The notes: generated by a model from the letters alone, not told the origin. Shown: positions 2,585-58,664, numbered from the stretch's first letter. The stretch: 64,000 nt of DNA from Chlorokybus atmophyticus (GCA_009103225.1 RHPI01001507.1:287626-351625); one strand, 5' to 3'. Program-made: numbers and translations.

Positions 2585-4897
2585 TGAAGGAAGCTTGTGC
2601 GTAAGTGCGCATGCATGCGTGTGTATGCGCAAGCATGAGCGCAGTTGAATGCACATGTGTGTGCAAGATAGATAAGGAATACGTAAGTGAGTATGCGTGT
2701 AGTTGTTACCTATAACTTCTTGAGCTGAACTGACCAAGTGCAACTCCGCCTGCTTGCAACTTTGCTTTTAATCAGCCAGCAGCTGCACCACTGGTAGCTC
2801 TCTGGCAGAGAGTACCTTGTGGACCTGTGGCAACAAAGCGAGAATTACACTCAGCAAGATTGAACACAACCAGCACACAACATGCTCGTGCCGACAAGCG
2901 ACATCCCAACCTCTCACCTTATCTTGGCAAATGTAACTCGCAGGCTTGACAGCCTACAGCCGCCGGTGCTTATGACACATTAGCTTGTTGCTGGACCACT
3001 TCTCGGCGTAGTTACAGTAGCAGTGCAAACGACCACACAACTTTCTTGAACTAAATGCTGAATACAGTAGGCTACAAGTGGATGGGTTCAACTTACTAGC
3101 AACAGCAACAACGACACCCGCACAAATACAGCAAATGCAACAGCAGCAACAAGCAAAGCTAGCAATACCTGCAGTCACTGCCCGGCAGCCAAGCTGCAAG
3201 CAAAATGTGTGAAAGAGCAGGCACGCAAGCGGGGGCGAGCAAGCATGGGGCACTAAGCAGGCAGGAGCGGGCGTGAAGGAGCAGGCGTGTAACAGGCATA
3301 GACTAGGCTGAAAACATTGCTGTCGCCTGCATGTAGTCATAGTTTTGGCATGGCAAGTAGGCAAACAGCTGCGAACAAGCTGCTGGTCGAACTACATGTG
3401 AACGACGCGTGTGTGCAAAACAACAGTAGCTTGCAATGCATGAAGTTGATGTGCTTGGTAAAGAAAGACACACGGAGCTGACCTCTCTTGTTCTTAATTG
3501 GACATGTTTTCAGGCCAGGTATGAGTGGAGCGACATAACACTGTGGGGAGCAATCTAACACTGGCAGCAACGCATCCTTTGGTTGACGTACGTCATGGCA
3601 TTACGGCTTTTACGCATACACATTGAGTACGACAACAAGAACATCACAAGTTAGTAAAACAAGCATTGGTTGCTAAACCGCAAGCAAGACAACAACTATT
3701 GCAGTTTACACACCTGCGCGGCTGCAGCACAAGTGGCAGCACAAACGTCACATGTGCAAGAAGGAGAAGCAGGCGTACATTACCAGAGCGATTGTGAGCG
3801 CCGACCTGCAGAGCATTGCAGCGATTGTGAGCAGCAGGCCGGCGCTGCTGGCAATCCCAACGACGAACTCCTGGCATTGCTACCGCCGCCGCCGTTGTGG
3901 CACACCATCGCCGCCGACACGACAAGCACAGCAACAATGCTACAACCGATAGCACGCCGACACTTTCATCGCAGCCCGCGCAAATGCAAACGCCTGGAAA
4001 TTGTAGGCCGAACGGTTTGTTTAACTACTGTAGGTGTTAGCAATTGCAGGCGTCAACGGTGGGTAACGTAAACCGCGATAGGCGCTGCAATTGCATGCAT
4101 CTTATAGGGTTTGGTCGATGTAGCGCATATTAGCACATACGGTTCGGTTGCTACGTTGGTCAAAGTATCGCTGTTCACGTTATTTAAGCCGATCGTGCGA
4201 GCATATCAGCTGCTTAAAGTATCGGTTGGCCGTGCACAATTGACCGAGAACACAAACGGTATGCCACGATTCTGGGTAGGTTACAGCCGGTCACTGTGGG
4301 GAATTGGTGCTGTACTGCCAGCTGTGTCAAGATCAGCGCCGGACAGCAGGCCAATTATGGCTCTATCGTCGGCACCAACCATAGTGCCGTCGATAACCGG
4401 CACCATTACCGGTCTCAACGTCGACGGCACTAGTAGGCGGCCTACTGTATGAAACCGGTGTTGGTCCGGACGCATACGATTAGTGGCCGCAACGAAAAGC
4501 ACCAATAATGGCGACGTCGATGGCACCAGAGACCCGGGCTGCCGGACCAGTATTGGACCGGCGTCTAGGAATTACCAATAATGGCGCCGATGTTGCGCGC
4601 TAGTAATGGACTCTCGTAGGACAGTGGTCCGCGCAGGTAATTCCCTGTGGCTTTCAGTCACTAGTTTGCCAGTTTTGCCTTGGATCCATTTCACGGCAAT
4701 TAAGAAGTTCTACCCCTAATGGGATCCCAACCTGTGCAGCTCAGCTCCGTTGGCAATGTAACACTGGCGCCTTAACCATTAGGCTACGGCAATGAAAGTC
4801 GCCACCATAGGAGGAGCCACATGCCATTTAACCATGTCCCATAACTACGGTATGACATCTTCAAAACTTGTCGAAGTCTCTAAACCAAGTTATTAAG

Positions 4898-5700
4898 ATG
4901 GCGGTGAGTTTTGACAATGTTCGGATTACCCCACTGCAGTCGGACAACTACCAAATGTGGAACACTATGATGATGATGCTTATGACAAGAAACAAGCTGT
5001 GGCAGATGTCTCGTCGTGATGCTGCGCCACGTGCTGCACCTGAGCTCTCTAACTGTGTGACTGCTGTTGGTGGGGCTAAGGTTGCTGCTGCTGCATGACC
5101 ATCACGACGAAGCTGCACTGTCACGACCATTGGGCTGGCAAAGGTCATTCTCTATTTCTTGCTTCATGAGACTCAATGGGACTCATTCCTAATAAGCAAG
5201 TGTAGTGTTACTGGGGTATGCTCTAATGTAGGTCTGCTCCTGAGCTCATGGGGCCTTGATTATGATGGACTACACAAGGCATTGATGAAGGTCGGCATGA
5301 AGCCGTCAATGCTAGAGGCTCGTTGAGCCCAAACCTACTCGCCACAATAAGTGACAGCTCCAAAAAAGAGAGCTAACTTGACAAACCACAGGACTTGTGC
5401 TGTGGTAGTGCGATGCGCCACAGATGTGATAGTCGCAAGGCTAAGTGATGCCTGTGGGCAATTGCAAGTACCGTACTAAGAGAGCCTAAGTTTGCATTCC
5501 CTTGATAGGACTGTTACTCCTACAGCAAACCGAGAGAGTTTGATATGCTCAAGGTTGATGTCCTGTGTTGGACAAGGGCAGCTTGCGCTGATAGGTCAGC
5601 ACACAGTGACAAGCCTTGGGCCTTGGACATCATGTATGCCAAGTCGGAAGAGCAGCAGGTGGTATTGAGGCTTAGTGACAACCTTGAGTAGAGGTATGAG
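4898..5700 (+). mobile_element. Degenerate Ty1/Copia gag(-protease) remnant
   Basis: MAVSFDNVRITPLQSDNYQMWNTMMMMLMTRNKLW resembles the Copia gag N-terminus (L..dNY..W...M...L....LW). Downstream fragments (LLSSWGLDYDGLHKALMKVGMKPSMLEAR) resemble the UBN2 gag region. Many stops. Confidence 0.55.
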
Positions 5701-6168
5701 TGTGTGTCACCACTTAAGGGCCACTTGTGTGTGGGGTGCCTGGCTAGTAGCTGTTGAAGGGGCTCTCCCCCTCATCGCTTGTGGGGTGGGGTATTGTGTG
5801 TGAGTGTGGGTATGTTGGTCGTGAGTGTGCCTGGGATTGGAGATGTGTGAGAGGTTGGTGGTCATTATCTCCTCCTTTGGAGCTGTCGTGCCTGCCATGG
5901 TCGAGGGCAACCTTGTCTCGGACAGGCTGCAGAGGAGTGCTAGTGCTGCACGCATGCTAGTGCCGTGCACTGCATTGGAGTCATGCAAGCAAAAGACAAC
6001 CCCCCAATCGTGGGCATAGGCTTGAAGATGAGCCTACGCGGTGTTTAGTGCAGTGGACGAGCCGATGCCGCTCGCCACCTTTGTGTACAGACTGTGTCGT
6101 AGTGCACACAGCCAACAAGCCACCCCCCCTGAGATTCTGGGGTAGCCTTCTGCTCCAGAACTCAGTTC

Positions 6169-9100
6169 CTACCGACTGTGTGGGGGACCGTTGATGCGGC
6201 AGTCATCGCACCAGTACTCCCACAACGGTACTGCGTCCAGGGGAGGGTCAAGGCAGTAGCAGTGCATGCCTTGATTACAGCCGTCGCATAACATCATCAA
6301 TGGGTCGTCGTCGGCGCTGCCACACTTCTCGCATCGGGTGCTGCGCAGCGGACGCGGGTGCTGGATCTTGGTGAAGCCAGCAATGTAGGGGAGATGACAG
6401 GGCGCACAGTTGACCATGTTGTCCTTCATGCGCTCGCCTCGTTGTCCCAACAGGTCCAGTACCCCTGTGGGGTGCACCTTCAATACCTTGTAGACAGCAC
6501 GCCCGACGGAGGTATCGAGGGTGTCGCGTGTAGACGCCATACGGTAGACGAAGTCTCCTGACTCGAAGCGGCGCTCCCGCTCCTTGTAGAAACCACTGCG
6601 CACACGCTCGTAACGCAGCGTGTCGCGGTGCTGCGCGATGCGCAGGTTGTTGAAGGCCATGGGGACTGTGTGTTCGAACAGCGCACTGCGCACTGTCAGA
6701 TCATACAACATCTCGTCGGGGTTGTCAAGATTGTCCACCACTCTGTCGACCTCCTGCTGTGCGCGGAAAGGGAGCAATGGCTGCCTTCCAAACAGTAGGT
6801 AGTATGGGCTGTACTCTCGCAGGGCTGCCTGCTTGGACAGCCGGTAGCCCATCGCTACCCATGGGAGGTGATCATCCCAGGTATTCTTCTCGTAGGCGAG
6901 GACGTACTTGCGCAGTGCCTTCTTGATGGTCTGCACGGTACGCTCGGCGAGGCCGTCGGCCTGCGGGTGGTCGCGTGAGGTGCGACGGTGGTCGATGAAG
7001 CATCTGTCGATAAGCTTGTCGAAGGCTCCTCTGAACTCTGTACCCTGGTCGGTGATGACTTCAGCGCAGCTGCCGAAACGTCCGAGTACATATGAGAGGA
7101 AAGCCTGGGCTACTCCCTCACTGCTCTTGTCGGGCAGGGGCACCAGCTCCACCCACTTGGAGAAGTGCTCGATCATGACGAGGATGTAGCGGTTGCCTCG
7201 CGCTGAGGGCGCTAGGTCTCCGAGGATGTCCAGTCCCCAGCGGTAGAACAACCCGGAAATGGGAAGGGGATGCAAGGTGGCATTGCGCGTGTTGAGGCTG
7301 ACGCGAACCATGTCACACTGCTGACAGTTGCTGACGAACTCCCGCACATGTCTGTGCACCCCATACCACCAGTACTGGATCCTGACCAGGCTGACCGTGC
7401 GCTTGACACCGAAGTGCCCGAGCTCGGTGTGAAGGGAGGAGATGATGCCTTCACGTGCAGCTGGTGTGGGGACCTCCTGATCTGCATCTTGTATCCGTCG
7501 ATACAGCCTGTCGTTGGCCCAGCGGTATCGCTGAGTGCGTTGTCGGACGCGGTCCTTTTCGCGTGCGCTCATGCCTGCTGGAAGTTGTCCAGTCTGAAGC
7601 AGTGCGAGGGATGGCTCGTCCAGCCAGATGTCTTGTCGTGTGTCGGTGGGCGCCAGCTCCTCATCATCCACCTCAGGGTTGGCAGCGATTGCTTCTTCTG
7701 ATAAAGGATCGGTGGTGGTGATGGCGGGCTCGGGAGCGGGCAGGTCCTCGTCTGCTGCTGCCTCAAAGGTCTGAGTCCTGCGTCCTGAGCGTAGCGCAGC
7801 GACAGCGAACATAGTGGCCACACCTGAAGGTGCAGATGTAGGACCCAACTCATGTCGGGCGCCTGTGGCGTCGTTGGTGCTGAGGTGGGGGTTACGGCTG
7901 AGGCCATCCGCATCCTGGTTGGCAAGGCCTGCGCGGTGTTCCACCTCGAAGTCGTACTCTTGGAGCAGCAGCGCCCATCGTGCTAACTTTCCTGTCAAGT
8001 GCTGGTTGTTCATTAGCCACTTGAGGGGTTGATGGTCAGTGACCAGTTGGAACTGCCGTCCAAACAGGAAGGGTCGGAAGAAGGAGATGGCCCACACTGC
8101 GGCGAGACACTCCCCTTCGTAGCTGCTGTAGTTGGCCTCAGCACTGTTGTTGCTGCGGCTGGCGTACGACACCACGCGCTCCTTCATGTTGTTGTCATGC
8201 TGTACGAGCACGGCCCCCATGCCGAGCTTGCTCCAGTCTGTGTGCAAGATGAACGACCTGGTGTAGTCAGGGCGTTGCAGAATGGGAGCTGTGGTGAGGC
8301 GGAGCTTCAGCTCCAAAAAGGCCTCCTGTTGTGCCTCCTTCCACAAGAACTCGGTGTCCTTCTTCAGTAGTTCATTGAGAGGCCTTGCGATCTTGGCAAA
8401 GTCTTTGACAAACCGGCGGTAATAGTTGGCAAGGCCGAGAAAGGCCCGCAGCCGCGTGAGGTCTGTGGGGGCAGGGATAGCCACCAGTGCCTCCACTTTG
8501 GCCTGCTGTACGTACACACCATGGGGCACAATCATGTGTCCTAGGTAGGGTACCTTGTGGGTGAAGAAGGTGCACTTGTCAGGGTGCACCGTCATCCCGA
8601 CTTCCTTCAGCCTCTGTAGCACCTCTTCGATGTGCTGGAGATGCTCCTCATTGCTGTGACTGAAGATGAGGATGTCGTCGATGTAGCAGCGTGCGAAGTC
8701 CAACCCCTTGAGGGCTTTGTCCATGACGCGCTGGACCTTGGCCGGAGCGTTCTTTAGTCCGAAGGGCATGACCTTCCACTGGTACAGCTGCCGGTTTCCC
8801 CAGAAGGAAGTCTTGTGCTTGTCCTCCTCCTTGATGGCAATCTGGTTGTACCCTTGGCGCAGATCCAGGATACTAAAGACTGTGCATTCTCCTACATCGT
8901 CAAAGATGCCTTCTGCGGTAGGCATTGGATACATGTCCTGCTTGGTCTTGTTGTTGAGGGGGCGATAGTCGCCACACATGCGCCGGTCTGTCCAGTTGCC
9001 TGCTGAATCTTTCTTCAGGGGCATGACGGTCGCGGCCGCAAAGTCCGATGTGGACTCCTCGATCAGGCCTGCATCTAGCAGCGCCTTGCACCTCTATTCC

Positions 9101-9402
9101 ACCAAGTCTTCTTCTAGCTTGGAGAGGCGGTACTGTCTTCTGAACACCGGTTCGGTGTCCACTAATTCAATGTCCATCTGGTATGCTGAGCAGATGCCCA
9201 GCTCCTTCACACTGAAGCTGAATTGGCTCCTCCACTTGTTGAGAAGAGCCTCGAGTTGCTCTCGAGTCTGGCCTGTGGCCAGCGGTCCAATGGCGTGGGA
9301 CCACGAGGTAGCGTTGGCGACCACTGGAATGTCTTCCACAGTGACTGCTGTCTGCTCCTCCATGTGGGCGGTCTCGAGGGCGGTGTGTGCTGCTTTGGTC
9401 TG
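6169..9402 (-). CDS. pol: reverse transcriptase - RNase H - integrase - PHD finger (in-frame TAG at 9094-9096)
   Basis: RT: DYRPLN, LDLRQGYNQI, MPFGLKNAP, YIDDILI. RNase H: HTDWS...EGECLA...TDH. Integrase: H..GH...C..C, GLDI, DQGTEF, AERT. C-terminal C4HC3 PHD. ORFs 9363-9094 and 9024-6169 share a frame and read EDLVE*RCKALLDAGLIEESTS across the stop. Confidence 0.93.
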
Positions 9403-12400
9403 TTAAAAACGAGCAATCCACCCCCCAGCCAGGTGTTCGAGCTCCTGGACGGACACGTGGCGGTCCTGGAGAGCAAAGCACATTTCCAAGTACCACACCA
9501 TGCTGTTCTGATCAATGGCGCGCCCTAACAACTGACACTGTTGACCGGTTGTCAGCGTGGAGCCTGTGATGCTGCCTGGAAAGAATCCCATAGCACGCTC
9601 GCGCTCGCGGGCATTGGGTTCTTCCAGCTGTCCAGTGTTGGAGTCCAACACCATGCCGTCGCCACCATTGCGGAACGCGTAGGAGCCTGGATAGGATACA
9701 AGCGTGGGTAGTGCGCGGCGCGGCTGGCCAGGCTGGTTGCACTGGTAGAAGTGGTGGTGGTCAAGGCGTGTGACTGGTTGCGCTGTGCGTCCAGGGTCCA
9801 AGATGTCATCGACGACGAGATTTCGTGGCCGATTGCTGTATAGGTACTCTGCCAGAAACAGGTCTTCCACAATGGCCAGGTTGGTCCACTTGGCGCGGAC
9901 GCGGTGTGCACGAGATCCATGACGCGCGGCGTTGATTTTGAGAGGATGCCCCAGCAAGGAGCATACTTGTCGATAGGCCTTAGCGACGTGATGCCGCTTG
10001 TCATCCTCGGAGTGCACATTCTCGATGATGTACCCCAAGGGCCTAGCGATCTGACTGGTCTGTAGGAGTTTGATGACTCTCATTAGCTCCCAGAACAGCT
10101 GTGAGCGAGGATCAGAGAGCCCTTGACCTCTGCCTGCCCTGGAGTGCCCTTGACACTCCCATCCTGCTATCAGCAGGTCAACATTGGCGACTGCCTGCAG
10201 GTGATCCTTGGTAATCCAGCGGATGTCCTGCGGTAGAGCCTTCTGGCTCCCTTGCAGTGCCGACAGTGGTAGCTGCTGCGGGTAGCGCTGGTGCAGCTGT
10301 CGTAAATGATGGCTCAGAGCCTCCTGTGCATGAGGGTCAGGGTCACAGTAGAGGTACTTGGTGACTGTTGTTCCTGTGTTGAGGACAGCCGCAAGCCCAC
10401 TGCCTATGCCTCCGAACAGCTCCAGCACGATGATGCCTTGTTGTCGGCGGAACATGTGGAACTCCACAACTCCCGTAGCTATGTGGTACTGCTCCTGCAC
10501 TGTAGCCTGGTCTTTGTAGACAGGGAAGTGTGCAGTGAGCTGAGGCCTGGTCAGCAGCATGTGTGCTGCTACTTGTGCGCTCCAGCGACGCTCGGATGGC
10601 TCCTGAAAGGCCACTTCTTTGGTGACAGTCTCCTGAGACTCATCGTACGGTGTAGGAGAGTCCTCTTCAGCGTTTAGGCTCGGGCTCGAGCTCGTTGCAG
10701 TTGTCCTCGGCTGCGTTCGGGCACGAGGCACACGTGAGCTTTTTGTAAGACTGTAGGTGGCTGCTGCGGCCGATCTTCGTTGCGAGCGATCCTTGGCCAC
10801 CAGTTCGAGAGGTAGGAATCCCTGCTCCTCTCCATCGTCCTCATCCCAATGCGGTCGAATCCATGCCTGCTCAGTCCAGCAGTCCATCCCCATGCCGACA
10901 GGGAAGTTGCAGTCCTGTCCCAGCAGTAGGTCAAAGGACCCGGCATCGGTGACCACACACCGTTGTACAATCTCGGTGCTGTGGGAAGGGTTTAGTCCTG
11001 TGAGGCGAATGCTCACAGCCTGCTTGATAAGGCCGAGCACCTTGTTGCGGTTGCCGGTTGCGGTGTCCAGCTGGTAGGGACAGGGAAGCAGCTCAGTGCT
11101 GGTGATGCCGAGATCTCGTGCGAGATAGCGCCCAACGATGACAGGCTGTGCTCCAGTGTCCAGCATCACGCGTTTGGGTGCCCGCCCATTGACGGTCACG
11201 TGCTTGCCTTGGTTGGCGATCATGGCTGCATTGGCGTTGATGCGCAGCCTCTTGCAGCGACGGAACCTCTTGCGTGGAGAGACTGTTGCTTTACTCTCAT
11301 CTGCGGGGCCTGACCGTAGGGCAGCCAGGGCTCCTCTGCCTGATGGATCTTGTGGGCCTCCTTGTCCTCGGCTTTGTCCAAACCGTCCTTGTCGCGGTTG
11401 CTGATACACGCGTGGTGGCCTAGGCACTGGAGGTGCTGCAGCAACCTGTCCAAGTGGAGGTGCAGGAGGGTTGACCCTCTGTGCAGCTGTTGTCATGCCA
11501 GGAGGAGTGGCCAGTGGCTGTGGCGGGAACCCTGGAGGACCTGGTGTTTGCGGGACTGCCTCTCGTGCAGCCTGCTCCTCTGCATAGGTCCATCGCACAG
11601 CATGGGCTGCCTCTCTGACTAGTGTACCTTCCCATGTCGCCGTCGCATTGTTGTCCACGTCTATATAGCGATGGTTCTGAGGCATGGGCTGCAGGTACAC
11701 TGCGCGTAGGAGCCGCGCTCTCATGTCGTGGGTGATGGTGGGCACCCTGAGGATCCCTGCCATGTAAGCATCCCATCTGCCGTTGACCACTCCCACTTCC
11801 AGCACTGTTATTGCTCGTGTGCGTACAGTGAGGCGGGTCTCTGGCTGTTGGACATGCTGCTCGTAAGCAGCGGCGATGCGCCTGCGCTGACGTCCTGCCT
11901 CCACTCCTGGCAAACTCAGTATAGCCTCCAGAGCTCCCTCCAGAGTGTCAGTGGCGGCGGAAGCCACTTCATCATAGGCTTGCCGTATGGAGCGAAGGAA
12001 TGCGTCCACCCACGCTATTCTGGCGCCGAAAGCGAACAACGGGACTGCGGGATGGTTGGTGACCAGCCACGTCACTAACCGTGCGCGTGCCGCGTTGCCA
12101 TTGTCTCGCATCCCAAGCATCTGCCGAAGTCCGATGCCTTCTTGCCGATGCAGCATGGTTGCTTGTCGCAACAGAGCAGTGCGTAGTTGTTGCTCTCCAA
12201 CCAGTCCTGCTCCATCTCTTTGTGTACACCCTTGTGGTGTAAGGTAGCCCCTCCCTGGCTCCCTTTGGTCCTCAGGTAGATCCTCCACCAGCGCAGGCAG
12301 CAACGGGGCGATCACCCCCCTGGTTTGTTGAGCCAACGCCCTCGCTTGGTCAGAGTTGGTCTCGACGAAGAGCGGAGTGGTGCTGGAGGATGGACCAGCA

Positions 12401-15264
12401 GTTGGTGACTGAGGTATTGGTGCACGTGTAGCTTCAAGAGCTTGTTCACGTGCAGCAATGGCGGCAGCTTGATCCTGTCGCCAATGATATGCTTGTTCCA
12501 GTGCGTGGTAGCGCTGATGAAGACGAGCGGTTGTAGGAGGTCCGAGTGCTTCATCAGTGCCCAAAGGCAGGTCGGCTGCGGCGGCGATGCGCTGCTGGAC
12601 GGCGTCTCGGCGGTCCAGATACGTGTCCAACGGGCTGGGTTCAAAGGTGGTGGTTGGCATGCGTGCAGGCTGGCGCGGGGCGGTCTGCATGTTGTTGTGC
12701 AACGCCCAGAACAGCTGCAGAGCCAACTCCAACACTACAGGTGGGCTGTAGCTGATTAAAAACACCCTGTCACGCATCGGAGGTGCAGTGCCAGCAAGGA
12801 TCTTATCTTCTAACTGGTGTTGAGTGGGTGCTGGAAGGGTGTGAACCTCTGGTAGCGGGAAGACGCGATCATCGCGGGCGACACGCGTGGTGCGCTCCCC
12901 CCCCCGACCGAAAGCGATGGTAGTGGGGTCTGCTCCGCGCAGGATGGTTTCCCATGCTCGCTCAGCTTGCTGACCAGTTGGGACAGCCTGAGTGACGTCG
13001 AGAGCGGGCAGAGTGGCTGCGCGCGTCGCTGCAGAGACAGCGGGGTCGACGATGGCCATTGTGGCAGTTGCGACGGTATCGGTCGGTGGTGCGAGAGTTG
13101 TCTCAACGCCTCCGGACAGAGGCACTGCTGCAGTGGGAAGTGCACCGCCCACTGGTGCAGATTCGGTAGAGATGGCGGCTGCTGCCAGTGTGCTCACCAG
13201 CGTTGGCGTCACGGTGCCCATCGGTGTACCAGGCTGTGGTGCAACTGGAGTGGGTGCTGCTGACGTTGGTGGAGTCGACGTTGTAGCCGGTGTGGCTGTT
13301 GCTGCGGAGGCAGCACCACTGGTGGCTTCGGAGGAGGTGCCTGCTGATGTTGTTGCAGCTTCCCCTCGTGCTCGTCGTAATGGTTGCACGCGGGACGGAG
13401 TGTTCCTGTCTCTCTCGCGATTTGCAGCCATCAGCGCCCATCGGGCAGCGTAGTAGGCGCGGTAGTCCTGCTCCTTGTCTTCTTCCAAGCGCGCCATACG
13501 CGCCATGAGGGCTGCCATATGGTCATCAGCTGGTGGGTTGGCTGAAGCCTTGGCGGCAACAGCAGCAGCGCGTGGACGTGTATCTGGTCCCTTACGCTGA
13601 GGAGGTCTGTTCTTCCCCCTGTAGCCTTGCTCTTCCTTGCGAACACTGGCGTTGTTGTTGTTGTTACTGCCACCAGCGTTGTTGCTGTTGTGGGCTCCAG
13701 TGTTGTTGCTATTGTAGCCACTGAAGTGGTTGCCAGTGTGGCCCCCAGTGTTGTTGCTGTTGTAGCCACTGAAGTTGTTGCCAGTGTGGCCCCCAGTGTT
13801 GTTGCTGTTGTAGCCACCGAGGTAGTTGTGGTTGTAGCTGTTGGCGGGCCTCAACTCTGGGAACTTGAGCCAGCAGACTGACTCCAAATGACCAGTCTTG
13901 TGACAGTGGTCGCAAACCAAAGTTGAGTATTCTTCGGTGCACTCCTTTTGGTAGTGCCCATGCCGTCCACAGCGATGACACAGCACAGGGGCAGCAAGTG
14001 CAGCATGAGCTGACCGTTTCCCTTTGTCGCGTGCTGGTGGAGCGTCCCGGCCACGGTCGCGGCGAGGAGGCTCAGTTGTCGTGCTGACTACAGGCCGTAC
14101 GGCGCTGCGGTTGGTGTCCAGCACTGCCTTCTCATACACCAAGCGCTTGTGGATGGCTTGTGCAGTCTCGAAGGCTTCTTTGAGGGTGTAGCCAAGGGGC
14201 CTGCTGTAGTTCAGAGTCAGGCGTGTCGACTCGCTCAGAGCAGCATCCAACTCATTGACGTATATCACTGCAGCAGCCTCCTCACTGACAATCTTGTAGT
14301 CAGTGTCCTTCAGCAGACCTTCCAGTCTGGAGTACAAGCGGAGGGGATCCTCATTGGGCTTGCGTCGAAAGCGTCTCAGCTCCTCAACCTTGCTGGTGGT
14401 CTGAGGAGGGAAGGTACGGCGCAGGGCAGCGTACAGGTCCTTGAGTGGAGAATCAGAGATGGCAGCACCTACGGTGATGGCTGGTGCGCGCAGTGCTACT
14501 GACCCGAGGGTGAAAGCGCTGCCTCCTGCACGAGAGCCAGGTGTTGCTGGAGGTAGAGGAGTACCCCACTCTGCGGCTGCCGCTTGCTGTACAGCTCTTT
14601 GTTCCTCAATGATGATGGCAGAACGGTCAAGGATGCGGACTCGACGTGTGGCCTCCTTGGACTCAACTTCTGCAGGGGTCAAGTTGACAAGTACCAACTC
14701 TGGTTCCTCCTCCTCTGCCTGCTTGAGAGCTGCAGCTATGGTCAAGCCTGTTACTGCAACTGAAGTGGCAGGTGGAACGACACCTGCTGGACGGTGCAGG
14801 GATGCAGATGCTATGGTGCTGGCAAGCTCGCCATAGCCGTCTACTCGATGCAGTTCAGCAACGGACTTCCAGACATCGTGTGCTTCATGATCAAGATACT
14901 GAGCAGCAATGTGGAAAGAGATCTCATCTGACCAGTCTTTGTTCTTCAGTGCTTGCTGCCGCATCTTGGAGTGGAACTTGATGATGAACTCATCCAGCGA
15001 GGTGGTGCCGGCACGTCCGGAGAAGCGCAGGGATGTGGTTGAACTGGAAGATTCCATCTCGTTGTCGTCGCTGTCCGATGATAGTGGAGAAGCTGGATGA
15101 CGAGGAGTAGAGTGGAGCGGGGTGAAGCTGGAGATGGAGCGCGAGCCTCTGCTGCTGCGGTCGATGCTTCCGTCACTGGTCCGCTCGTAGGTGAGATTGG
15201 TGGTTGGGCTCCAACTGCTGAGGTCACCCTCGTCTATTGGGGAGAACGGGGTGGGCCTGCTCAT
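9403..15264 (-). CDS. Gag - unknown region - aspartic protease - C5 cytosine methyltransferase polyprotein (1953 aa)
   Basis: Zinc knuckles CHRCGRHGHYQKEC and CDHCHKTGHLESVC. Protease LDTGA (DTG at 11152-11160). DNMT motifs ELFGGIGSG (I), AGWECQGHS (IV, Cys at 10153-10155), ENV (VI), AHRVR (VIII), ERERAMGF (IX), LLGRAI (X). Confidence 0.92.
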   Translation of the reverse strand: MSRPTPFSPIDEGDLSSWSPTTNLTYERTSDGSIDRSSRGSRSISSFTPLHSTPRHPASPLSSDSDDNEMESSSSTTSLRFSGRAGTTSLDEFIIKFHSKMRQQALKNKDWSDEISFHIAAQYLDHEAHDVWKSVAELHRVDGYGELASTIASASLHRPAGVVPPATSVAVTGLTIAAALKQAEEEEPELVLVNLTPAEVESKEATRRVRILDRSAIIIEEQRAVQQAAAAEWGTPLPPATPGSRAGGSAFTLGSVALRAPAITVGAAISDSPLKDLYAALRRTFPPQTTSKVEELRRFRRKPNEDPLRLYSRLEGLLKDTDYKIVSEEAAAVIYVNELDAALSESTRLTLNYSRPLGYTLKEAFETAQAIHKRLVYEKAVLDTNRSAVRPVVSTTTEPPRRDRGRDAPPARDKGKRSAHAALAAPVLCHRCGRHGHYQKECTEEYSTLVCDHCHKTGHLESVCWLKFPELRPANSYNHNYLGGYNSNNTGGHTGNNFSGYNSNNTGGHTGNHFSGYNSNNTGAHNSNNAGGSNNNNNASVRKEEQGYRGKNRPPQRKGPDTRPRAAAVAAKASANPPADDHMAALMARMARLEEDKEQDYRAYYAARWALMAANRERDRNTPSRVQPLRRARGEAATTSAGTSSEATSGAASAATATPATTSTPPTSAAPTPVAPQPGTPMGTVTPTLVSTLAAAAISTESAPVGGALPTAAVPLSGGVETTLAPPTDTVATATMAIVDPAVSAATRAATLPALDVTQAVPTGQQAERAWETILRGADPTTIAFGRGGERTTRVARDDRVFPLPEVHTLPAPTQHQLEDKILAGTAPPMRDRVFLISYSPPVVLELALQLFWALHNNMQTAPRQPARMPTTTFEPSPLDTYLDRRDAVQQRIAAAADLPLGTDEALGPPTTARLHQRYHALEQAYHWRQDQAAAIAAREQALEATRAPIPQSPTAGPSSSTTPLFVETNSDQARALAQQTRGVIAPLLPALVEDLPEDQREPGRGYLTPQGCTQRDGAGLVGEQQLRTALLRQATMLHRQEGIGLRQMLGMRDNGNAARARLVTWLVTNHPAVPLFAFGARIAWVDAFLRSIRQAYDEVASAATDTLEGALEAILSLPGVEAGRQRRRIAAAYEQHVQQPETRLTVRTRAITVLEVGVVNGRWDAYMAGILRVPTITHDMRARLLRAVYLQPMPQNHRYIDVDNNATATWEGTLVREAAHAVRWTYAEEQAAREAVPQTPGPPGFPPQPLATPPGMTTAAQRVNPPAPPLGQVAAAPPVPRPPRVYQQPRQGRFGQSRGQGGPQDPSGRGALAALRSGPADESKATVSPRKRFRRCKRLRINANAAMIANQGKHVTVNGRAPKRVMLDTGAQPVIVGRYLARDLGITSTELLPCPYQLDTATGNRNKVLGLIKQAVSIRLTGLNPSHSTEIVQRCVVTDAGSFDLLLGQDCNFPVGMGMDCWTEQAWIRPHWDEDDGEEQGFLPLELVAKDRSQRRSAAAATYSLTKSSRVPRARTQPRTTATSSSPSLNAEEDSPTPYDESQETVTKEVAFQEPSERRWSAQVAAHMLLTRPQLTAHFPVYKDQATVQEQYHIATGVVEFHMFRRQQGIIVLELFGGIGSGLAAVLNTGTTVTKYLYCDPDPHAQEALSHHLRQLHQRYPQQLPLSALQGSQKALPQDIRWITKDHLQAVANVDLLIAGWECQGHSRAGRGQGLSDPRSQLFWELMRVIKLLQTSQIARPLGYIIENVHSEDDKRHHVAKAYRQVCSLLGHPLKINAARHGSRAHRVRAKWTNLAIVEDLFLAEYLYSNRPRNLVVDDILDPGRTAQPVTRLDHHHFYQCNQPGQPRRALPTLVSYPGSYAFRNGGDGMVLDSNTGQLEEPNARERERAMGFFPGSITGSTLTTGQQCQLLGRAIDQNSMVWYLEMCFALQDRHVSVQELEHLAGGWIARF

Positions 15265-16259
15265 ACAGCTGGTCCAGAGGTGAAAGGGTAGAGTGCTTGT
15301 GCTCTACCGTCTATCCTGATGCTGTTACCACCCAACACACTAGTGCTTGTGCGCACTATGTGATGACAATGATAACGAATGCCCAGCGATGTATCCCTGG
15401 GTGCAGACTGCACTATCTGATGCAGATTGCAACACACTCACTTGTGCAAAGAGGGTGACAATGTAAGTCAACAAGCCACTACGATAGGTAGTGCTGTGGA
15501 CACAGTCCTTTGCATGAGTGGATAGAATGATACACTGTTAAGTGAGGTGAATGAGTGTGCAACACGTGGATACAACACCCTGACTACTGAAACAACACAC
15601 CACCGTCAAGCTCACAGCAATGGCAGGCACAGCGCACAAGAGCATGCACCGTGTCTCACGCAGTAAGGGAATTCTTGGCAACCGGGGCAGCGTGCTTCCA
15701 GTTCAAGTCGCTTCACAAGCTCTTTAGAAACAGAGTCTTTACTTCGTGGTACTCCTAGTACTCACAGTACTCACTTACAGTGTCGCCAGCCAGTCTGGTG
15801 ACGTAACTTCCTACTTATACATGTCAAATCATGACTGTGCAGTGCCACGCGGGCACTAGGCCAACGGTCACATCGAGGCCTCATGCTATTTCGGAAATCT
15901 TCTAAGACTCGATATAGCACATGTGTTCTTAACAGACTTGCAACTGATCAGCTACGCGCGGTCCCTACAGACAGGTCTATAAAGTAGCCCTAGCTACATG
16001 CTACATGAGTGATACAGTAGCTAGCAGTAGGCTGGGGCTCGCGCGGTCTTCATGCTGGTAGCCCGGGCGCGGGGCTGGGTGTAGGCATGCTTGAGAAGAA
16101 CTGGCATGCGAGGGTAGATGGCATGACAGAGCGCTGCTGCAACTTCTCCTGCACCGTAGTGTTGGTGGGATTTCCACCGTAAGTCCTTGTGCATTGGTGT
16201 GCCAAGCCCCGACTAGCAAGCAAGTAGTGGTATCGTTACATGCACGCGCTGCAGCTGCC

Positions 16260-17400
16260 GAAGACGCTGAAAGGCTCAAATTTTTATTGGACTGAATGTG
16301 AAGGATCATCACCAAAGTTTGATGACTGAGTGCACAACCGCAAGGGAGTGCTGCAGACGGTTTGGAGGCACATTTAGGTCTAGCAACAGTACGAGAAATT
16401 TGCAACTTGAGAGACCGATGTTTTTATAATGGATGACGACTAGAGAACGTGTTATCAAGTTTGTCGCAAGGGCTAGAGACCTTTGCATAAAGCTAATTGC
16501 TGTTGCCATAACATTAAAGAACTTAAAGTGGTCTGGAACATCATGTCTAGGTTGTCTGCCAGATTGAACAATATGGTCCAAATCTTGGGCACCACTTCTG
16601 CTAATTAATGCTGGGTTGAGGTTGTACCAAAGCTGATGTGTGTTTAAGGCAATTATAAGAAGAAGTAGGACTTCAGGAAGACCATTGCAATCGCTGCCAA
16701 GTTTGTGGCTTCCTCATCCTCTTGAGGCCATGAAAGAGGTAGAGGAAGAGGCAAGTTGAGAGGTGTGAGTAGAGAATAGTGGCTGAAGACTGTGGAGTGT
16801 CATTTGCTAGGAAGGTCCATAGCCAGGCCAACTGTTATGAGAATAAGACCAAGGGCTGAAAATGCACGGAGAATGTTATAGGTGGCTTTTGCTAAATCCG
16901 CTGAGTTTGAGGCGTGTACCTCTCGGCTTAATAATAGACTCTGATTGTACTTGCACATGACTCAAAACGATGCGGAAGACAATAGACATCTGGCAAAACC
17001 CACTGTCGTCTTATAATCAAAGACTTGACTGACGCCGAGCAAGGTGCACAACTTGCTACTGAACTCGAAGCGATGTGCCACTCCACTAGTTGACAGCTTT
17101 CTCATCTAGCGCGTGCGCACCTGCTTTTACAGTGTTGATAACCACCTGGTCGCGCAGCCTCAAGGGCTCCAATGTACATGCCCCCTACTAGTATGTCTCA
17201 GAATTGTCAAAGTCAAGGCAGTCAACACTGTAGTGACCAAGAGCGCTTACCGCTATTACGAAGTACAGCTCAAGTGCATGGTTGTAAACAATAGTTACGC
17301 AAGGACAAAGGCGCGCATCTGCATTCCCGTAGTAAAGAAGGACGAGTGGCAAGGCAAGTCAGCACATCGGCTTGGCAAACATGTAAGTGCTGCTATTTGT
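16260..17400 (+). mobile_element. Second degenerate Ty1/Copia remnant (gag, protease, pre-integrase)
   Basis: KAQIFIGLNVKDHHQSLMTECTTARE...TFRSSNSTRNLQL matches the Copia gag pattern. Frameshifted DCGVS protease-like segment near 16790 and HRLG near 17370. Many stops and frameshifts. Confidence 0.55.
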
Positions 17401-17704: not shown

Positions 17705-17863
17705 NCAACCTCTCTAGTCGAGCGTATCTAGCTCACTCAGCTAAGCTTAGTGGGCCCCCACCCAGTCTGTGTTAGGCGTTCTTGTATTGTATGGTGATGT
17801 TTGCCGTGTAATGCCACTTGCTCTGTGACCCTACTTGGCCCCTGCTGTTTGCAACAGCCATCA

Positions 17864-18213
17864 TGTAAAGGGAGAAATGCCAACTCCCCCTTTAATCCTC
17901 TACCCCAACACCCACGCCAACGACCCTACCCATGCCGCCACCGTGACTGACATGTCAAGAACCCCCGTTCCCTCACTCACTATCAGCCATAGCTTTGACC
18001 ATTTTGGTTGATATCAACCAATTAGGGTAAGAATCACGGATATCACCCGTTGGGACTCATATAAGGGTCTTAATTAAGCATAGAGCGAGGAACTAATGAA
18101 GCTTGGCATTTTATATGACCTAAATTGGTCAATTATAAAATATAATTGACCAATTAAGGTCATATAAAATGATGTCAAGGTGAAAACCTTAAATAAGGGA
18201 AAAGCCCTTGACA
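17864..18213 (-). repeat. 3' LTR-like copy adjoining the PPT
   Basis: tgtaaagggagaaatgcc...aagcccttgaca, followed on the plus strand by ttgccccccctc (minus-strand PPT GAGGGGGGGCAA). Confidence 0.9.
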
Positions 18214-18405
18214 TTGCCCCCCCTCGGCTCCTGACGCCGTCAGTTGATCACTCTAACAGCCGGATCCGATTTCGATGAGGGATGAGGGTTGCACACTGAA
18301 GACATGCTGCCTCACGCCCTGTCAGTAGTGCGGTGGGCACACACGTTAGCGAGAGTTGTAATCCTGAAGAACCTGCTGGCAGTTTGTCAAGTTGCTTTCG
18401 GGCTC

Positions 18406-21400
18406 CTACGTGTTGTGCTCAACACCATACCCTTTCCACTTGACCAAATACGATGTGCGTCCACGCTTATCCTTTCTATGATCAAGTATATTCTCCACCT
18501 CATATTCCGGGCCCGCACTGCCATCTAAGACAACAGCAGGAGGTGGTGGTTGAGTCCGTCCATCAGCACGATAGGCTGCAAGGAGGCTCACAGGAAATAC
18601 ATCATGTATCTTTCCCATCGATGCTAGCAACTCCAACCGATATGCAAGTTTGCCAACTCGCTCGCGTACTGCGCACGGTCCTACAAAGCGTGGCATGAGT
18701 TTGCGGGTACACTTTGCCTTGAGTGACAAGTTCTTGGTGTTTAGCAACACCATGTCACCAATTTTAAACATTATGCCGATGCTTATCAGTATACGCTTTG
18801 ATCGATCTTGCGCCGCACGCATGCACTCACGTGCTCGTTGCGTGCATGATTGCAATTCAAGTGCAAGATCGCGTGCAGCTGGCACCTTATAACTAGGTGG
18901 CAACTTCAGATCAGCCACCCCCAATGGGTATTTGCCATAATTCGCAAAGAAGGGCGTGTCGTTTATGCTCGCTTGCCAAGCATTATTGATTGCAAATTCT
19001 GCCATTGGTAAGTAGACATCCCAATCGGTTTGATTAGGTGCAACATAATGTTGCATATTGTCGCATAATGCCAGGAGTCTCTTCCACAATCCGGTTGGCA
19101 CGTTTAATTTGCCCATCCGTCTGAGGATGAAACGTAATGCTCATGTGTTGGTTAATGTGCAAGAAGTCACACCTTGATCTCTAAAACAAAGACGTAAATC
19201 TCGGACCTTTATCTGATACCATATTGCGTGGCAAACCATGCAAACGGTACAACGAGGAGAGGAACAGCATAGCTAATTCCCGAGCACCCGTGTCCGTACG
19301 GCAAGGAGCTAGGTGAAGCATTTTGGTCAGACGGTCCACAAACACCACAATCGCTGTATGACCTCAGGTAGTCTTAGGCAGTGCAGTGATGAGATCCATA
19401 CTGACACTCTCCCAACTGAGCGATGGGATAGGCAATGGCTGTAAAAGGCTGGACATTCTTTGCCGTCTTGGCTTGTTGCGTTGACATGCATCGCATGTTG
19501 CAACATACTGATCGACATCCAATGTCAATCGGGGCTAATACAAGTGTCGTTGAGTTGCAGCAGTAGTCTTGGACCGCCTAAAGTGACCGACATGCACAGT
19601 AGTGATACACTCAGTGCGCAAGCCATCATGATCAGGTATGACAAGAGCATTGCCCTTATACCATAGTCCATCCCGCAATTTAAAGCCCCGTCACGTGTTC
19701 ATGGTTGATACACCATTGCTCAGTAGTCGTATGGTTGACGTCAGCCGGAATGAACTTGCGAGACTCATACGCACACACATTCGTCTTGCATGAGCACCGC
19801 CCCACACCCAAACTTGGAAGCATCACTTATCACAGTGAATTGTTTCTCTTCCAATCCGGCATTGCCAGTACAGGTGCTGATGTTAGTGCACGCTTGATCA
19901 TCGCGCATGGATTCGTCGTGTTTTGCATCCCATGTAAAGCATTGTCCTTTATGCAACAATGTTGACAACGGCAAAGTCAATGAACTGTAACCAAGTATAA
20001 ACCGTCGAAAGCAATTAGCCAGGCCCAAAAATGATCAGCTCATAATGATTGCGAGGCGTAGGCCAATCTTCCACGACCTTAACTTTGGTAGGATTAGGCT
20101 TGATGCCATCAGCACCAACAATGTGCCCCAAGTATGGCAACTCCTGCTTACCAAAATTGCATTTGCTGAGGTTGGCGAACAACTTGTGCTTCCACAACCG
20201 CTCAAGAACGATTGCCACATGTTGCTGATGTTCATCCAGGTCATTACTATGAACAATGATGTCATCCAGGTAGACCTTTGCAAACTTGCTAAGCAAGTCG
20301 CCAAACACAGCATTCATCTCGGCTCAAAAGACTACGGGTGCGTTTGTCAAACTAAACGGCAACACCTTGTATTCATAATGGCCAATCGGCGTTCTGAAAG
20401 CAGTATTATGTACATCATTCGCATGCAACCGGACGATAACCACTGGTCAAGTCGAGTGATGTAAAGTACTTACTCCCCGACAGTGAGTCCTGCATGTCAT
20501 CAATGCGTGGTAAAGGGTACTTATTTGTGACCGTGATCTTGTTCAATGCACGATAATCCACACATGCGTAGCTTCCCGTTTTCTTTCTTACAAAGAGAAT
20601 GGGAGAGCCGTATGGGGATTTACTCGGTTGAATCAAACCTTTGGCCAATAACTTTGTGATCTGCTTTTCCATTTCTACCCTCTCTACAGGACTTAGCCTA
20701 TAGGTAGGTCGTGAAGGAGGGGCAGATCCTGGTTTTATATGAATGGTATGACCAATACCTCTACCTCTATCCGGTGGTAGTTCCGGCAAAGTGTCAGCAA
20801 AGACATCGCTGAATGTGGTCACCACTTGTTGCATTTTGGGAATGCCATTCATGGCAGCGCTGTTGGCATCGGAAGCAGCATGTACATGAGCCAAAAAGGC
20901 CGTTGATTTGTGCTTGCGATACACACGTTTGGTTTGCAGAGCATTTAAAAGCCCTGCACGCTTAGGCAAAGTTCGTCGCAATTGCGTGGTGAGCGTAACT
21001 TTACGCTTACCTTTGCGTACGGAACATGTTTTTGCATATGTGTCTAGAATGCGACGCACAGCTTGTTGCCAATCAAGCCCCAGTATGACATCAGTATTGT
21101 CAATCCCAAGAACTGTGACTAACAGCTTAAACACGCCGAGTATGCACCAATGCGCATGCGTGCATTGACAACGCCATATAGAGGCAAAGCGTTGCGCCCT
21201 GCGGCATGCAACAGCATGTTTGCTGGTAACATAGCCAACGATAAGCGTTTCACTAAAGAATGATCAATCAAGCTATGCGTAGCAGCGGTGTCCAACACAA
21301 ATGAAGCATAATAACCCGCTAAAGAACCCTGAAAGGTCCATAGTAAGGGAATAAGATGACCATCAAATGCGGCCATAAGGGCATGGTCACTGTGCGGCGG

Positions 21401-21409
21401 AAGCACCAC
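18406..21409 (-). pseudogene. Frameshifted chromovirus pol (PR-RT-RH-IN-chromodomain)
   Basis: Pieces in different frames: 21409-21119 PR, 21134-20415 and 20317-20015 RT, 20028-19765 RNase H, 19116-18406 integrase C-terminus plus chromodomain. Confidence 0.88.
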
Positions 21410-21754
21410 CTACTTCATGAAAGTAGGCATATCTGTTGTCCGCTTGAACTTAGCCACAAGGTGTCCATGTGATGTCCATTTGGAACATGAGCCATGATTG
21501 TATGGCATGAGGACATACTTTGTGATAGCAGGATGCTGTTTTTGAAACGTAGCAAACTCTGCTAAAGTAGTTGCTAAGTCATCTGGTTTGCACGAAAGTA
21601 ACACACGCGCATCATGTACTGGTTCATCACACCGCAATACAGGCAACGTATCATGATCAAACCAAGCATGCGTGACACCATGTGTACGTATAACAGATAC
21701 AATGTCCAAACCAACATCTCTAGGCATAGTGGCCATGGCTAATCCCTACGGCTC

Positions 21755-24449
21755 CTATTGAGTCTTCTGGCCTTTGCCCTTGCCCATCTTTGAAGACGCA
21801 GAGGCCTTGAGCTCAGGGTGCAGCTGCCAACAACGACCTGCCGTGTGACCAGGATTCCTGCAAGAAGCACAAGTCACCTTTGGCTTATCGAAGCGGGACT
21901 TCTTGAACCGCTGAGGTGCTCCACGTTTGCCGTCCGTGTGCTCTCTCTTCTTCTGCACTGAAACTGCAGTTGTATCCTCAGGATGAGTTGCTTTGGTAGA
22001 TCGCAGAGAGTGGTCGAGACTGATGACATGACTTGATGTACTCATCCAAATTCCCAGCCCCCCCCACAGTGTTGTCCCCTCTCAGCTGCAAGCTGGTGAC
22101 GAGATCCTTGCGTAATCCACTGCGAAAGGAGCGCATCTGTGCAGCCGCATCATACGGAAGTGGTCCTTGGTTGACTTCATCAACCAACAGGCGCCACTCG
22201 CACGCATACACAGCAGCATTCTTGTTGCCCATTAGAAGTTGGGCCAACTTCTCATCTGCTTCCACCCAAGGCGCAACACTCTGGTAGTGACTGCGCATGT
22301 AGTCCATCAGTGCTTGCATGGTATTGGCAAACTTGCCCTTCTCATGCTGCATCTGCACCTTAGCTGGTGCCGAATTGAGAAGAATGTTGAACTTGTCCTC
22401 CTCTGACATGTCATTAGCTAAGGCCAACTAGTTGTTGATGGTTGGATCCACTTCTTAATGGTAGTCTTCCTATCAATGGGATCAAACATGGATGGCTTGA
22501 CCAATGCCATCTTGGCACCGGCAGACATCGTCGCAAATTTTACACGGGGACTGATAAGGGACTGAGGGACTGACGTGTGCCTGACCCTACCTGACGTAAC
22601 GGATTGATCCATACAGGGACTTTTCAGGTCGGCAGTTACAATTAAGCAACATATACCGACGGCAAGCAGTCGACCGATTGATACAATCGACGGCGGCCTG
22701 CCTGTAACGGCAACACCGCACTTTAAGATGACGGCCGATTGTCGGTCGTCCCATTTGCGCGACCTATCTGTATAGTTGATAAGTCACGTTTTGGTCACAT
22801 ACAGTGACGGCCGACCGACGGTCGTACCTTGACCGTAAAAAAGTATGCGCGACGGCCTGCCTACTTTGGCAAGCCAGTCACTGTTAGTCCCTTTCAGGTG
22901 ACCTTACCGCGTTTATCAAGTGACGGCCGATCGCCGATCGTGCACTTAACGCGGCGGCGACCTATTTATTGTGTGTCAAGTATGATAAGCAAGTGACCGC
23001 TGGTCCCTAAAGGTCGGCAAGTCGGGACGGTGGTACCGGCCGGCAAGTCAAACGCGGTGGTACAATGCCGCCGCCGTACTATGTCAATAGTACGAACAGT
23101 GCCATTGTTGCAATGGCACTATCGTAACATCAGTATGGTACGATAGTGCCATTGCGACAATGGTACTTTCGTACCATTATAATTATACGATAATGCCGTT
23201 GCGAATCCGACTCAAAACGTGAGTCAAGTTTCGAAAACGCGTTTGAATAACTTGGGCTGTTCAAGTTATTTAAACGCTCAACAGCTTCAAGTTGAACAGA
23301 GAGTTGTGGGCGGCGGCGGCGGCGGCGGCAGTGATGGCGGCGGTGGCGGCGGCGGCGGCAACGGCTAACAGTAGGTGAGCTTGGTTGCTGTCTGACGTTG
23401 TACTACGTGCAACACCGCATGCCAGCTAACCACCCTCCTTGCCTTAGGGCGGCCAGGCCAGACCAGGCTAGGCCAGACCAGGCCAGGCGGCGGCGGAGAA
23501 GGAACGGCGGCGGCGGAGCTGGAGCGGGCGGTGCAGGAGCCGCAGCTCAGTACAAGGGTAGTACTAGCAGTAGTACCTAAGGTAGCTGTAGCTGTAGTGG
23601 TAGTGGTAGCAGTAGTGGTAGTCTAGTTGTACTAGCAGTAGTAGTAGTAGCTCTGTATATTACATTGTAATTTATTTATTTATTTATTTTTTATTATTTA
23701 TCACGCATTCTTGCATAGCTAATGACGACAATTACGTGTGACACTTTATCATGATTGAGCGGTACCAGCATGTACCTTTACAAGTACACATCGTTAACGG
23801 TAGGTACCTTAAGGTACCTGACAATTTCGCTCAGTTAGCGTACAGTCGCCGGTACCTAACTGATAGGTACCGGTCAGTTACCTGTTAATTAGGTCAAGTT
23901 CTCTTTGCTTAACTGTTGAGTACCTGACAGGTACTTATTAATTAGGGTCAGTCCCTTTATGCAAACGGCCGCCAACTAATGGTGACGACCGTTATGCGCC
24001 GGTCCCTGTATCGAGATCGCCGGTAGACTGAAGGTCGACAATCTAAATGAGTATCATCAGGTGCACGGCCGTTGCTAATATTTAATTGGCCGGCAGGGGA
24101 AACATTTTGCGACGATACTGCTTGTGGCGGGTGAAGAGCGCAATGCCGTCACTTGCTGAGACAGATGAGAGATCAATGACTCTGCGATCTCCAATCTAGA
24201 AGTAACGCCTCGCGCCAACGCTTCCTGATGGCGACAATTTTGTGCCAGGAATTGGAATGCGCAACGCGGGCCATTGGAAGCAGCGTCAAAGACGCGCAGA
24301 AAATTCTGAATGAATTCCTCACTTGTCTCAGTGGGTTGCAACACATAAGGTTGGCTCTGTTGAGCTCCCTCTGAACTGGTGCGAGTAGCTGCTGGTGCAG
24401 GTTGTTGCTGGGTAGTTTTCTCCCTAGGCTCATTGACATCAACATGCAC
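21755..24449 (-). pseudogene. Chromovirus gag, interrupted by the 1.6-kb TIR element and frameshifted
   Basis: Gag-like pieces (KPSMFDPIDRKTTIKKW; QMRSFRSGLRKDL; knuckle CASCRNPGHTAGRC). Removing 22529-24114 plus one AT joins ORF 24449 in frame to ORF 22612-22418 (PATSS-MSAGAK). Confidence 0.75.
22529..24114. mobile_element. Non-autonomous TIR DNA transposon (1586 bp)
   Basis: Termini CGTCGCAAA...TTTGCGACG flanked by AT on both sides. Subterminal ACGGCCG-type repeats, internal (GGC)n, (TAG)n and (TTTA)n microsatellites and hairpins. No coding capacity. Closely related inverted copy at 61102-62348. Confidence 0.85.
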
Positions 24450-25550: not shown

Positions 25551-25562
25551 GCTCCGATACCA
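25551..25562 (-). promoter_or_regulatory. Primer-binding site for initiator tRNA-Met
   Basis: Minus-strand TGGTATCGGAGC two nt from the 5' LTR end; one change from the canonical TGGTATCAGAGC (G-U tolerant). Confidence 0.9.
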
Positions 25563-25564
25563 AA

Positions 25565-25925
25565 TGTAAAAGGAGAAATGCCAACTCCCCCTTCAATGCT
25601 CTACCCCAACACCCACGCCAACGACCCTACGCATGCCGCTGCCATTACTGTCGTGTCAAGAGCCCCCGTTCCCCCACTCACTATCAGCCATAGCTTTGAC
25701 CAGTTTGGTTGATATCAACCAAACTGGTCAAAGCTATGGCTGATTAGGGTAAGAATCGCGGATATCACTCGTTGGGACTCATAGCTTGAATAAGACTCAT
25801 ATACGGGCCTTAATTAAGTATAGAGCGAGGAACCAATGGGGCTTGGCATATAATTGACCAATTAAGGTCATATAAAATGATATCAAGGTGAAAACCTTAA
25901 ATAAGGGAAAAAAAAGCCCTTGACA
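25565..25925 (-). repeat. 5' LTR of the chromovirus
   Basis: tgtaaaaggagaaatgcc...aagcccttgaca; contains a perfect 60-bp palindrome at 25684-25743. Confidence 0.92.

Positions 25926-29179: not shown

Positions 29180-32071
<2,892 letters not shown>

Positions 32072-56673: not shown

Positions 56674-58664
<1,991 letters not shown>

Follow-up and report, generated by a model that had tools for sequence, protein, structure and literature searches.

A minus-strand locus in the window (the whole stretch of DNA that was analysed, 64,000 nucleotides) places a cytosine methyltransferase inside the polyprotein frame of a Gypsy retrotransposon. This raises the questions of what state the element is in, how widespread such elements are, and what a retrotransposon does with such an enzyme. 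The copy in the window is a decayed member of a multi-copy Ty3/Gypsy family with a DNMT3-like domain in its polyprotein frame. The green-lineage Gypsy-DNMT3 kind has already been published (KnitGypsy-Dnmt3 of Klebsormidium), and the window element is a further member of it, a dead one. The features of the element are the following.

5900..16240 (approximate), minus strand: Ty3/Gypsy element, limits estimated from contig bin depths
9403..15303, minus strand: open frame of 1966 codons, stop to stop, with Gag-like region, protease and methyltransferase; first ATG at 15264
13873..13980, minus strand: Gag zinc knuckle(s) of the CCHC type (Pfam zf-CCHC, E-value = 0.001-0.005, under the curated cut-off)
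10846..11232, minus strand: aspartic protease (Pfam Asp_protease_2, E-value = 1.7e-7; LDTGA at 11149-11163)
9466..10437, minus strand: DNMT3-like C5 cytosine methyltransferase, motifs I to X in unrearranged order (Pfam, sequence, profile and fold)
9403..9405, minus strand: first in-frame stop, between methyltransferase and reverse transcriptase (RT); not the majority state of the family
9094..9096, minus strand: second in-frame stop, in the first part of RT (frame translation)
8530..9297, minus strand: RT with YIDD (Pfam RVT_1, E-value = 9e-34)
7894..8349, minus strand: RNase H (Pfam RT_RNaseH, E-value = 3e-36)
6394..7632, minus strand: integrase, H2C2 finger and core (Pfam Integrase_H2C2, E-value = 6e-15; rve, E-value = 3e-8)
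6199..6339, minus strand: PHD finger at the end of the frame (Pfam PHD, E-value = 9e-7), also present in relatives
6169-6171, minus strand: stop of the frame after the PHD finger
6121..6130, minus strand: possible polypurine tract, a purine run then TG just past the frame (tentative, from reading the sequence)

The Pfam domain order on the minus strand is Gag zinc knuckle, protease, methyltransferase, RT, RNase H, integrase and PHD finger, and it contains the Gag-PR-RT-RH-IN order by which Ty3/Gypsy elements are recognized. Gag to PHD finger forms a single reading frame throughout, interrupted only by the stops at 9403-9405 and 9094-9096. The first of these closes the frame about 20 codons past the methyltransferase domain. 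The second falls within RT, and the window copy is thus decayed in any case and cannot make RT. The sequence-only reading had described an intact methyltransferase between protease and RT. The order is correct and the domain itself is intact, but the two stops had been overlooked; the copy is not intact and its methyltransferase is not joined to RT. A non-standard code in which TAA and TAG specify Gln was rejected because the 1966-codon frame contains no TAA or TAG codon.

The zinc-knuckle region shows a second Cys/His motif when the sequence is read by eye. A 24-base tandem repeat (positions 13653-13852) encodes an Asn/Gly/His-rich stretch directly after the zinc knuckles. At the integrase end Pfam gave no match to a chromodomain, and the PHD finger is found there instead.

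The depth of contigs from sequencing runs X1 and X2 climbs near positions 5600-6000 and drops to 0 past the 16028-16428 bin; their coverage of the element reaches to about 16200-16400. Self-comparison by two methods showed no terminal repeat pair or split repeat flanking the element in the window. A tentative TG...CA pair and its 5-base duplication were rejected as the element ends, being within chance expectation, and no tRNA gene is present in the window for comparison with a primer site. One X2 contig (depth 4.5) links 5880 to 16131, which may be a DIRS-like split-repeat junction or an internal deletion. Paired long terminal repeats (LTRs) were found in two of 28 long related loci, L005 and L042, both from the branch of stop-containing elements described below:

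L005, 5868-6174 and 14615-14921: LTR pair, 307 bases, 94% alike, short inverted TG...CA ends
L042, 1676-2017 and 10350-10691: LTR pair, 342 bases, 92% alike, short inverted TG...CA ends

The rest of the window holds a decayed chromovirus-type Gypsy element at 17863-25925, with an RT piece at 20415-21263 and an SH3 domain and chromodomain at 18406-19140. It is flanked by diverged 350-base repeats (17863-18213 and 25564-25925, 75% alike), which are possible LTRs of this element. Also present are a gene for an NLP-type transcription factor (44676-47160, GAF_NLP and RWP-RK domains) and exons of a Cu/Zn superoxide dismutase gene (54744-56166), and these two genes point to the green lineage, with a streptophyte alga as the probable host. 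An intron-rich gene with a NIDO (nidogen-like) domain lies at 29546-31786. Very long GA/CT dinucleotide runs are found at about 30400-30870 and at 56670-58660 (about 2 kb), each beside a single N, and their length may be an assembly artefact. A 102-base inverted repeat (2186-2287 and 4757-4858, 80% alike, 2.5 kb apart) may represent the ends of a DNA transposon.

The methyltransferase domain displays the C5 motifs I, IV (with the catalytic Cys), VI (ENV), VIII (RxR), IX and X in order. The motifs named in the sequence-only reading were all recovered in one minus-strand frame, fused in frame to Gag and protease, as translation and coordinates show:

10396-10422, minus strand: ELFGGIGSG
10336-10350, minus strand: YCDPD
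10150..10164, minus strand: GWECQ, motif IV, catalytic Cys within a Glu-Cys dipeptide
10093-10113, minus strand: DPRSQLF
10015-10026, minus strand: IENV
9895-9909, minus strand: AHRVR
9583-9606, minus strand: ERERAMGF
9517-9531, minus strand: LLGRA

A profile search with the domain alone, which had been proposed as a check, matched Pfam DNA_methylase with an E-value of 4e-11 and a score of 43 bits, the cut-off being 22. The best solved relatives of the single sequence are DNMT3C, DNMT3A and DNMT3B (E-value = 1e-6). When an 18-sequence profile was compared with solved structures, DNMT3A gave 4e-20, DRM 6e-12 and HaeIII/HhaI about 1e-7. DRM chains align only to the motif I-IV part of the domain in this comparison, and the circularly permuted motif order of the DRM type is absent from the window domain, which has the canonical order from I to X.

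An AlphaFold2 model of the domain has a pTM of 0.75 and a mean pLDDT of 69, with the core above 90 and the target-recognition region poorly predicted (pLDDT <50 at residues 245-288). Foldseek with this model gave DNMT3 in all 40 matches listed. A fold search against 48,161 representative chains placed DNMT3A at the top (Z = 21.8, rmsd 3.3, 251 residues aligned), with DNMT3B at 21.6. Lower matches were M.MpeI (18.9), HhaI (17.7), DNMT2 proteins (16.0-17.1), DNMT5 (16.1), and CMT and DNMT1 (15.2), and the best 20 matches are all C5 methyltransferase structures. The domain therefore does align to the fold, a point on which the original proposal could have failed. By sequence, profile and modelled fold it is closer to DNMT3 than to DNMT1/CMT, DNMT2, DNMT5, DRM or the bacterial enzymes, and the earlier preference for DNMT3 over DNMT1/CMT is borne out.

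The catalytic domain of animal DNMT3A/3B/3C (PDB 2qrv, 4u7t, 6u8p, 8tci) is thus the best match by sequence, profile and fold and has the same motif order. It differs in its low identity to the window domain (~20-22%). The window domain has Glu-Cys in motif IV, departing from the canonical Pro-Cys, and a longer, poorly modelled target-recognition region, and there is no PWWP or ADD domain in its frame.

The closest published system is KnitGypsy-Dnmt3 of Klebsormidium nitens, which also bears out the precedent first cited for this locus. According to the part of PMC5890265 that was available, it is likewise a green-lineage Gypsy element with an unrearranged, intronless DNMT3-like domain in the polyprotein frame, with catalytic residues kept, purifying selection and several copies. 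It has been published with DIRS-like split repeats (A, coding, B, A, B), of which none are seen in the window. The same portion of text does not give its domain order, or mention a PHD finger, Glu-Cys or readthrough; its likeness to the window element is one of description. SymbioDIRS-Dnmt3 of Symbiodinium, described in the same source, also has a DNMT3-like domain within Pol, in two domain orders. These are dinoflagellate DIRS elements with a tyrosine recombinase, whereas the window element has a protease, a DDE integrase and Gypsy order. The EpiLTRs/DAM-LTRs, as far as the accessible text of bioRxiv 10.64898/2026.05.21.726589 describes them, are Ty3/Gypsy-like elements with a DNA methyltransferase and a chromatin reader that occur also in chlorophytes; they differ in having an adenine methylase, a DNMT4-related enzyme and a chromodomain. 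That text lists Gypsy-DNMT3 elements for streptophytes only, and the accessible part of PMC12344493 (2025) mentions such elements in streptophytes.

The element is repeated. Contigs of runs X1 and X2, which may come from other strains than that of the window, were mapped to it, and 616 (X1) and 1197 (X2) contigs match with 80-100% likeness. Summed depths are 43 to 626 inside the element and 0 to 10 in the outer bins. The number and depth of contigs show many related copies, though they do not give a copy number. In X1 the main contigs that bridge RT to methyltransferase and methyltransferase to protease have a depth of 43.6-45, compared with 41.7-54.3 elsewhere in the element. Third codon positions account for 21 of the 31 variant places within the domain among those listed (p = 9e-5). 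In all four pairs of related loci that were compared, dN/dS of the domain is 0.10-0.17, near the protease value and above the RT value. These substitution patterns show the methyltransferase domain to be under purifying selection.

All searches for homologues used the methyltransferase domain as query. Three such searches gave 83, 84 and 51 proteins, all with 51% identity or less. The hosts named, for a part of the matches, are the liverworts Marchantia polymorpha and Calypogeia fissa, several strains of Closterium, and two chlorophytes, Hariotina reticulata and Haematococcus lacustris; no Klebsormidium sequence is among the named matches of these searches. One cluster, P0095, comprises at least 18 annotated M. 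polymorpha proteins at 90% identity, several of them on the V chromosome and all called hypothetical, and its longest M. polymorpha proteins stop shortly past the methyltransferase.

An exhaustive profile search gave 524 clusters at E <1e-30, of which the best 150 were analysed. At least 150 clusters, with less than 50% mutual identity, have E <1e-70. Another retroelement domain accompanies the methyltransferase in 107 of the best 150; RT or RNase H precedes it in 69, integrase directly follows it in 20, RT follows it in 7 and protease precedes it in 11. The remaining 43 have no other domain detectable by the queries used. A PHD finger is found in 49.

Conservation was counted over 141 near-complete domains from clusters less than 50% identical to each other. 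The catalytic Cys is present in 140/140, the motif VI Glu in 141/141, and the motif VIII arginines in 140/141 and 139/140. From these invariant residues, working members of the family may be taken to be catalytically active. The catalytic Cys is preceded by Glu in 76 of 140 rows and by Pro in 52; Glu-Cys is thus a common state of the family and not damage. At 5 columns with a conservation of 80% or higher, the window protein is off consensus.

A second architecture has the order RT-RNase H-methyltransferase-integrase-PHD (locus L036; P0208 and P0225 of H. reticulata; P0216 of H. lacustris). FastTree was run separately on RT-RNase H and on the domain, with SH-like support only and no outgroup, for 65 rows: the window element, 57 proteins having RT, RNase H and at least 190 domain residues, and 7 hand-picked loci out of 71. 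In both trees, a branch with a support of 99 separates the elements whose domain lies between RNase H and integrase (41) from those in which it precedes RT (24). Named hosts of the former are the two chlorophytes and those of the latter are streptophytes. By RT, the window element is sister to the Marchantia-containing branch.

Patristic distances of RT and domain have a Spearman correlation of 0.75 overall (0.85 and 0.47 within the two architecture groups), and none of 999 permutations was as high. Comparison of the two trees thereby shows the methyltransferase to be co-inherited with RT. On the trees, motif IV changes between Glu-Cys and Pro-Cys at least 8 to 10 times. The split between the two architectures agrees with a single capture followed by a move; with unrooted trees, separate captures from two related donors are also possible.

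How would a working copy use the enzyme? Ty3/Gypsy polyproteins are packaged into particles and processed by their own protease. The balance tilts slightly towards a process in which the enzyme of working copies is packaged in the particle and methylates newly made cDNA. The polyprotein would be packaged together with RT and integrase and cut by the element's protease, and the released methyltransferase would meet the new cDNA in the particle and methylate it. The target context would be CG, going by the related SymbioDIRS-Dnmt3 enzymes; the model of the domain, with its poorly predicted target-recognition region, does not itself show a CG specificity. Each new copy would then enter the genome already marked, and the PHD finger of the integrase end probably steers insertion to chosen chromatin.

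Methylation of cDNA by a Gypsy-borne DNMT3 is a published hypothesis (de Mendoza et al. 2018, PMC5890265), and guidance of integration by PHD fingers has been proposed for other retrotransposons (PMC6673714); both are taken from the available parts of these papers. The former reports de novo CG methylation in yeast for DNMT3 domains from dinoflagellate DIRS elements, the only retrotransposon DNMTs with such activity in the available text. The Klebsormidium domain, the only Gypsy-borne one assayed, gave no methylation in yeast; human DNMT3B failed too, and the authors consider the result inconclusive. A mark of self-methylation was also sought in base composition and was not found: CG depletion relative to synonymous shuffles is 0.83 in the element and 0.84 in the neighbouring chromovirus remnant, which has no such domain (a control of 283 codons only). 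The proposed methylation of cDNA is weakened by this Klebsormidium result, by a CG loss equal to that of the domain-free neighbour, by Glu in place of Pro in motif IV, and by the five off-consensus columns.

It is possible, though rather unlikely, that the enzyme acts instead on chromatin (the insertion site, older copies or host loci), being carried there with integrase and PHD finger or made in excess. The domain stands after RT/RNase H or directly before integrase in 89 of the best 150 clusters, and in many it adjoins a PHD finger. The conserved stop of the liverwort-related branch would put the domain in excess over RT and integrase, and the element has no extra CG loss. However, a place in a polyprotein that is cut by protease tells little of the partners of the domain, and the methylome of Klebsormidium resembles that of land plants, without a genome-wide effect, in the available text of PMC5890265.

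A repurposed fold that binds nucleic acid, or methylates RNA, is still less probable. The absence of DNA methylation by the Klebsormidium domain in yeast would be in accordance with it, as would the presence of Glu-Cys in over half of the family with its repeated switches on the trees. Mere binding, however, needs neither the catalytic Cys nor the Glu nor the two arginines, which are almost invariant, and the nearest folds are those of DNA enzymes, with DNMT2 lower than DNMT3A in the fold search (16.0-17.1 against 21.8).

Methylation of cDNA in the particle remains the preferred reading. In some relatives, those of the liverwort-related branch, the amount of enzyme may be set by a stop codon. 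Among 41 loci in which both the domain and the RT start are present, 38 have an in-frame stop 21-28 codons ahead of the RT match, and 37 have TAR-CAR at the stop. The 38 loci form seven subfamilies at 85% identity, one of which holds 31 loci; TAG-CAR is found in six of the seven. The readthrough signal of the tobacco mosaic virus (TMV) type is UAG-CAR-YYA (PMC2754532, in the part available), and the full signal is present in five of the seven. The L002 group has the conserved stop, as do L001, L004, L006, L009, L046 and L053. No other stop interrupts the stretch of about 1,700 codons between protease and PHD finger in L006 and L009, and the corresponding position is also where many database proteins from this branch terminate. 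The conserved TAG-CAR stop, judged from this pattern of conservation, is likely a programmed readthrough site. Readthrough at TMV-like rates would yield methyltransferase at the level of Gag and in excess over RT and integrase.

In the window, too, a Gln codon follows the stop at 9403-9405, as in the TAG-CAR of relatives, the element is sister by RT to the stop-containing branch, and 17.8/81.4 of the X2 depth lacks the majority difference at this codon. It is nevertheless very unlikely that this stop is a programmed readthrough site and that Gag-protease-methyltransferase is the normal main product of the window's family. In both runs the main contigs depart from the window sequence in the stop and in the next codon: at 9403-9405 contigs differ within the codon at a depth of 45/45 in X1 and 63.6/81.4 in X2. 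At 9094-9096 the corresponding values are 95.2/95.2 (X1) and 206.2/206.2 (X2). The bridging X1 contig has 11 differences to the window, and a hand check showed that they make no new stop. The closest relatives with Glu-Cys are single open frames, and the second stop, within RT, marks the copy as decayed anyway. The TMV-type state is that of the stop in related loci and is not the majority state in the window's family, and the first stop of the window is treated as decay because the family majority differs there. Since the main contigs differ in both stops and the bridging X1 contig gains none, the family is most likely one open polyprotein of which the window copy is a decayed member.

It is hardly credible that one copy alone picked up a piece of a host DNMT3 gene which serves no function: no evidence in its support was found, and against it stand the family-level depth in two runs, where the domain is present in other copies of the family, the lack of any sign of introns (one open frame), the selection, and the dozens of distant elements that likewise carry the domain in frame.

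The broader picture, judged marginally probable from comparison of sequences, is that Gypsy-DNMT3-PHD elements form one old green-lineage clade of chlorophytes, streptophyte algae and liverworts. DNMT3 would have been taken up once and kept catalytic, and its place in Pol would have changed, with streptophyte elements having it ahead of RT and chlorophyte elements between RNase H and integrase; its dose would be set by stop readthrough at the Gag level in the land-plant branch. In the accessible text of the literature covered (few subscription journals, with Repbase-type records outside it), no liverwort or chlorophyte members, second architecture, Glu-Cys or readthrough are reported for such elements, and the available parts of PMC11244446, PMC6338049 and PMC6453930 hold nothing further on them.

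Some of these copies may be miscounted as methyltransferase genes of the host, or as bacterial genes in metagenomes; one related protein carries the name of a cyanobacterial bin. Since 2018 there has been the question of why retrotransposons retain an enzyme whose normal effect is to silence them, and the Gypsy case has consisted of one alga and one negative assay. The relatives described here show that the trait is old and widespread, and they provide many natural variants of the enzyme. Marchantia polymorpha, a genetic model with methylomes, mutants and reporters, has many copies, and this makes retrotransposon self-methylation directly testable.
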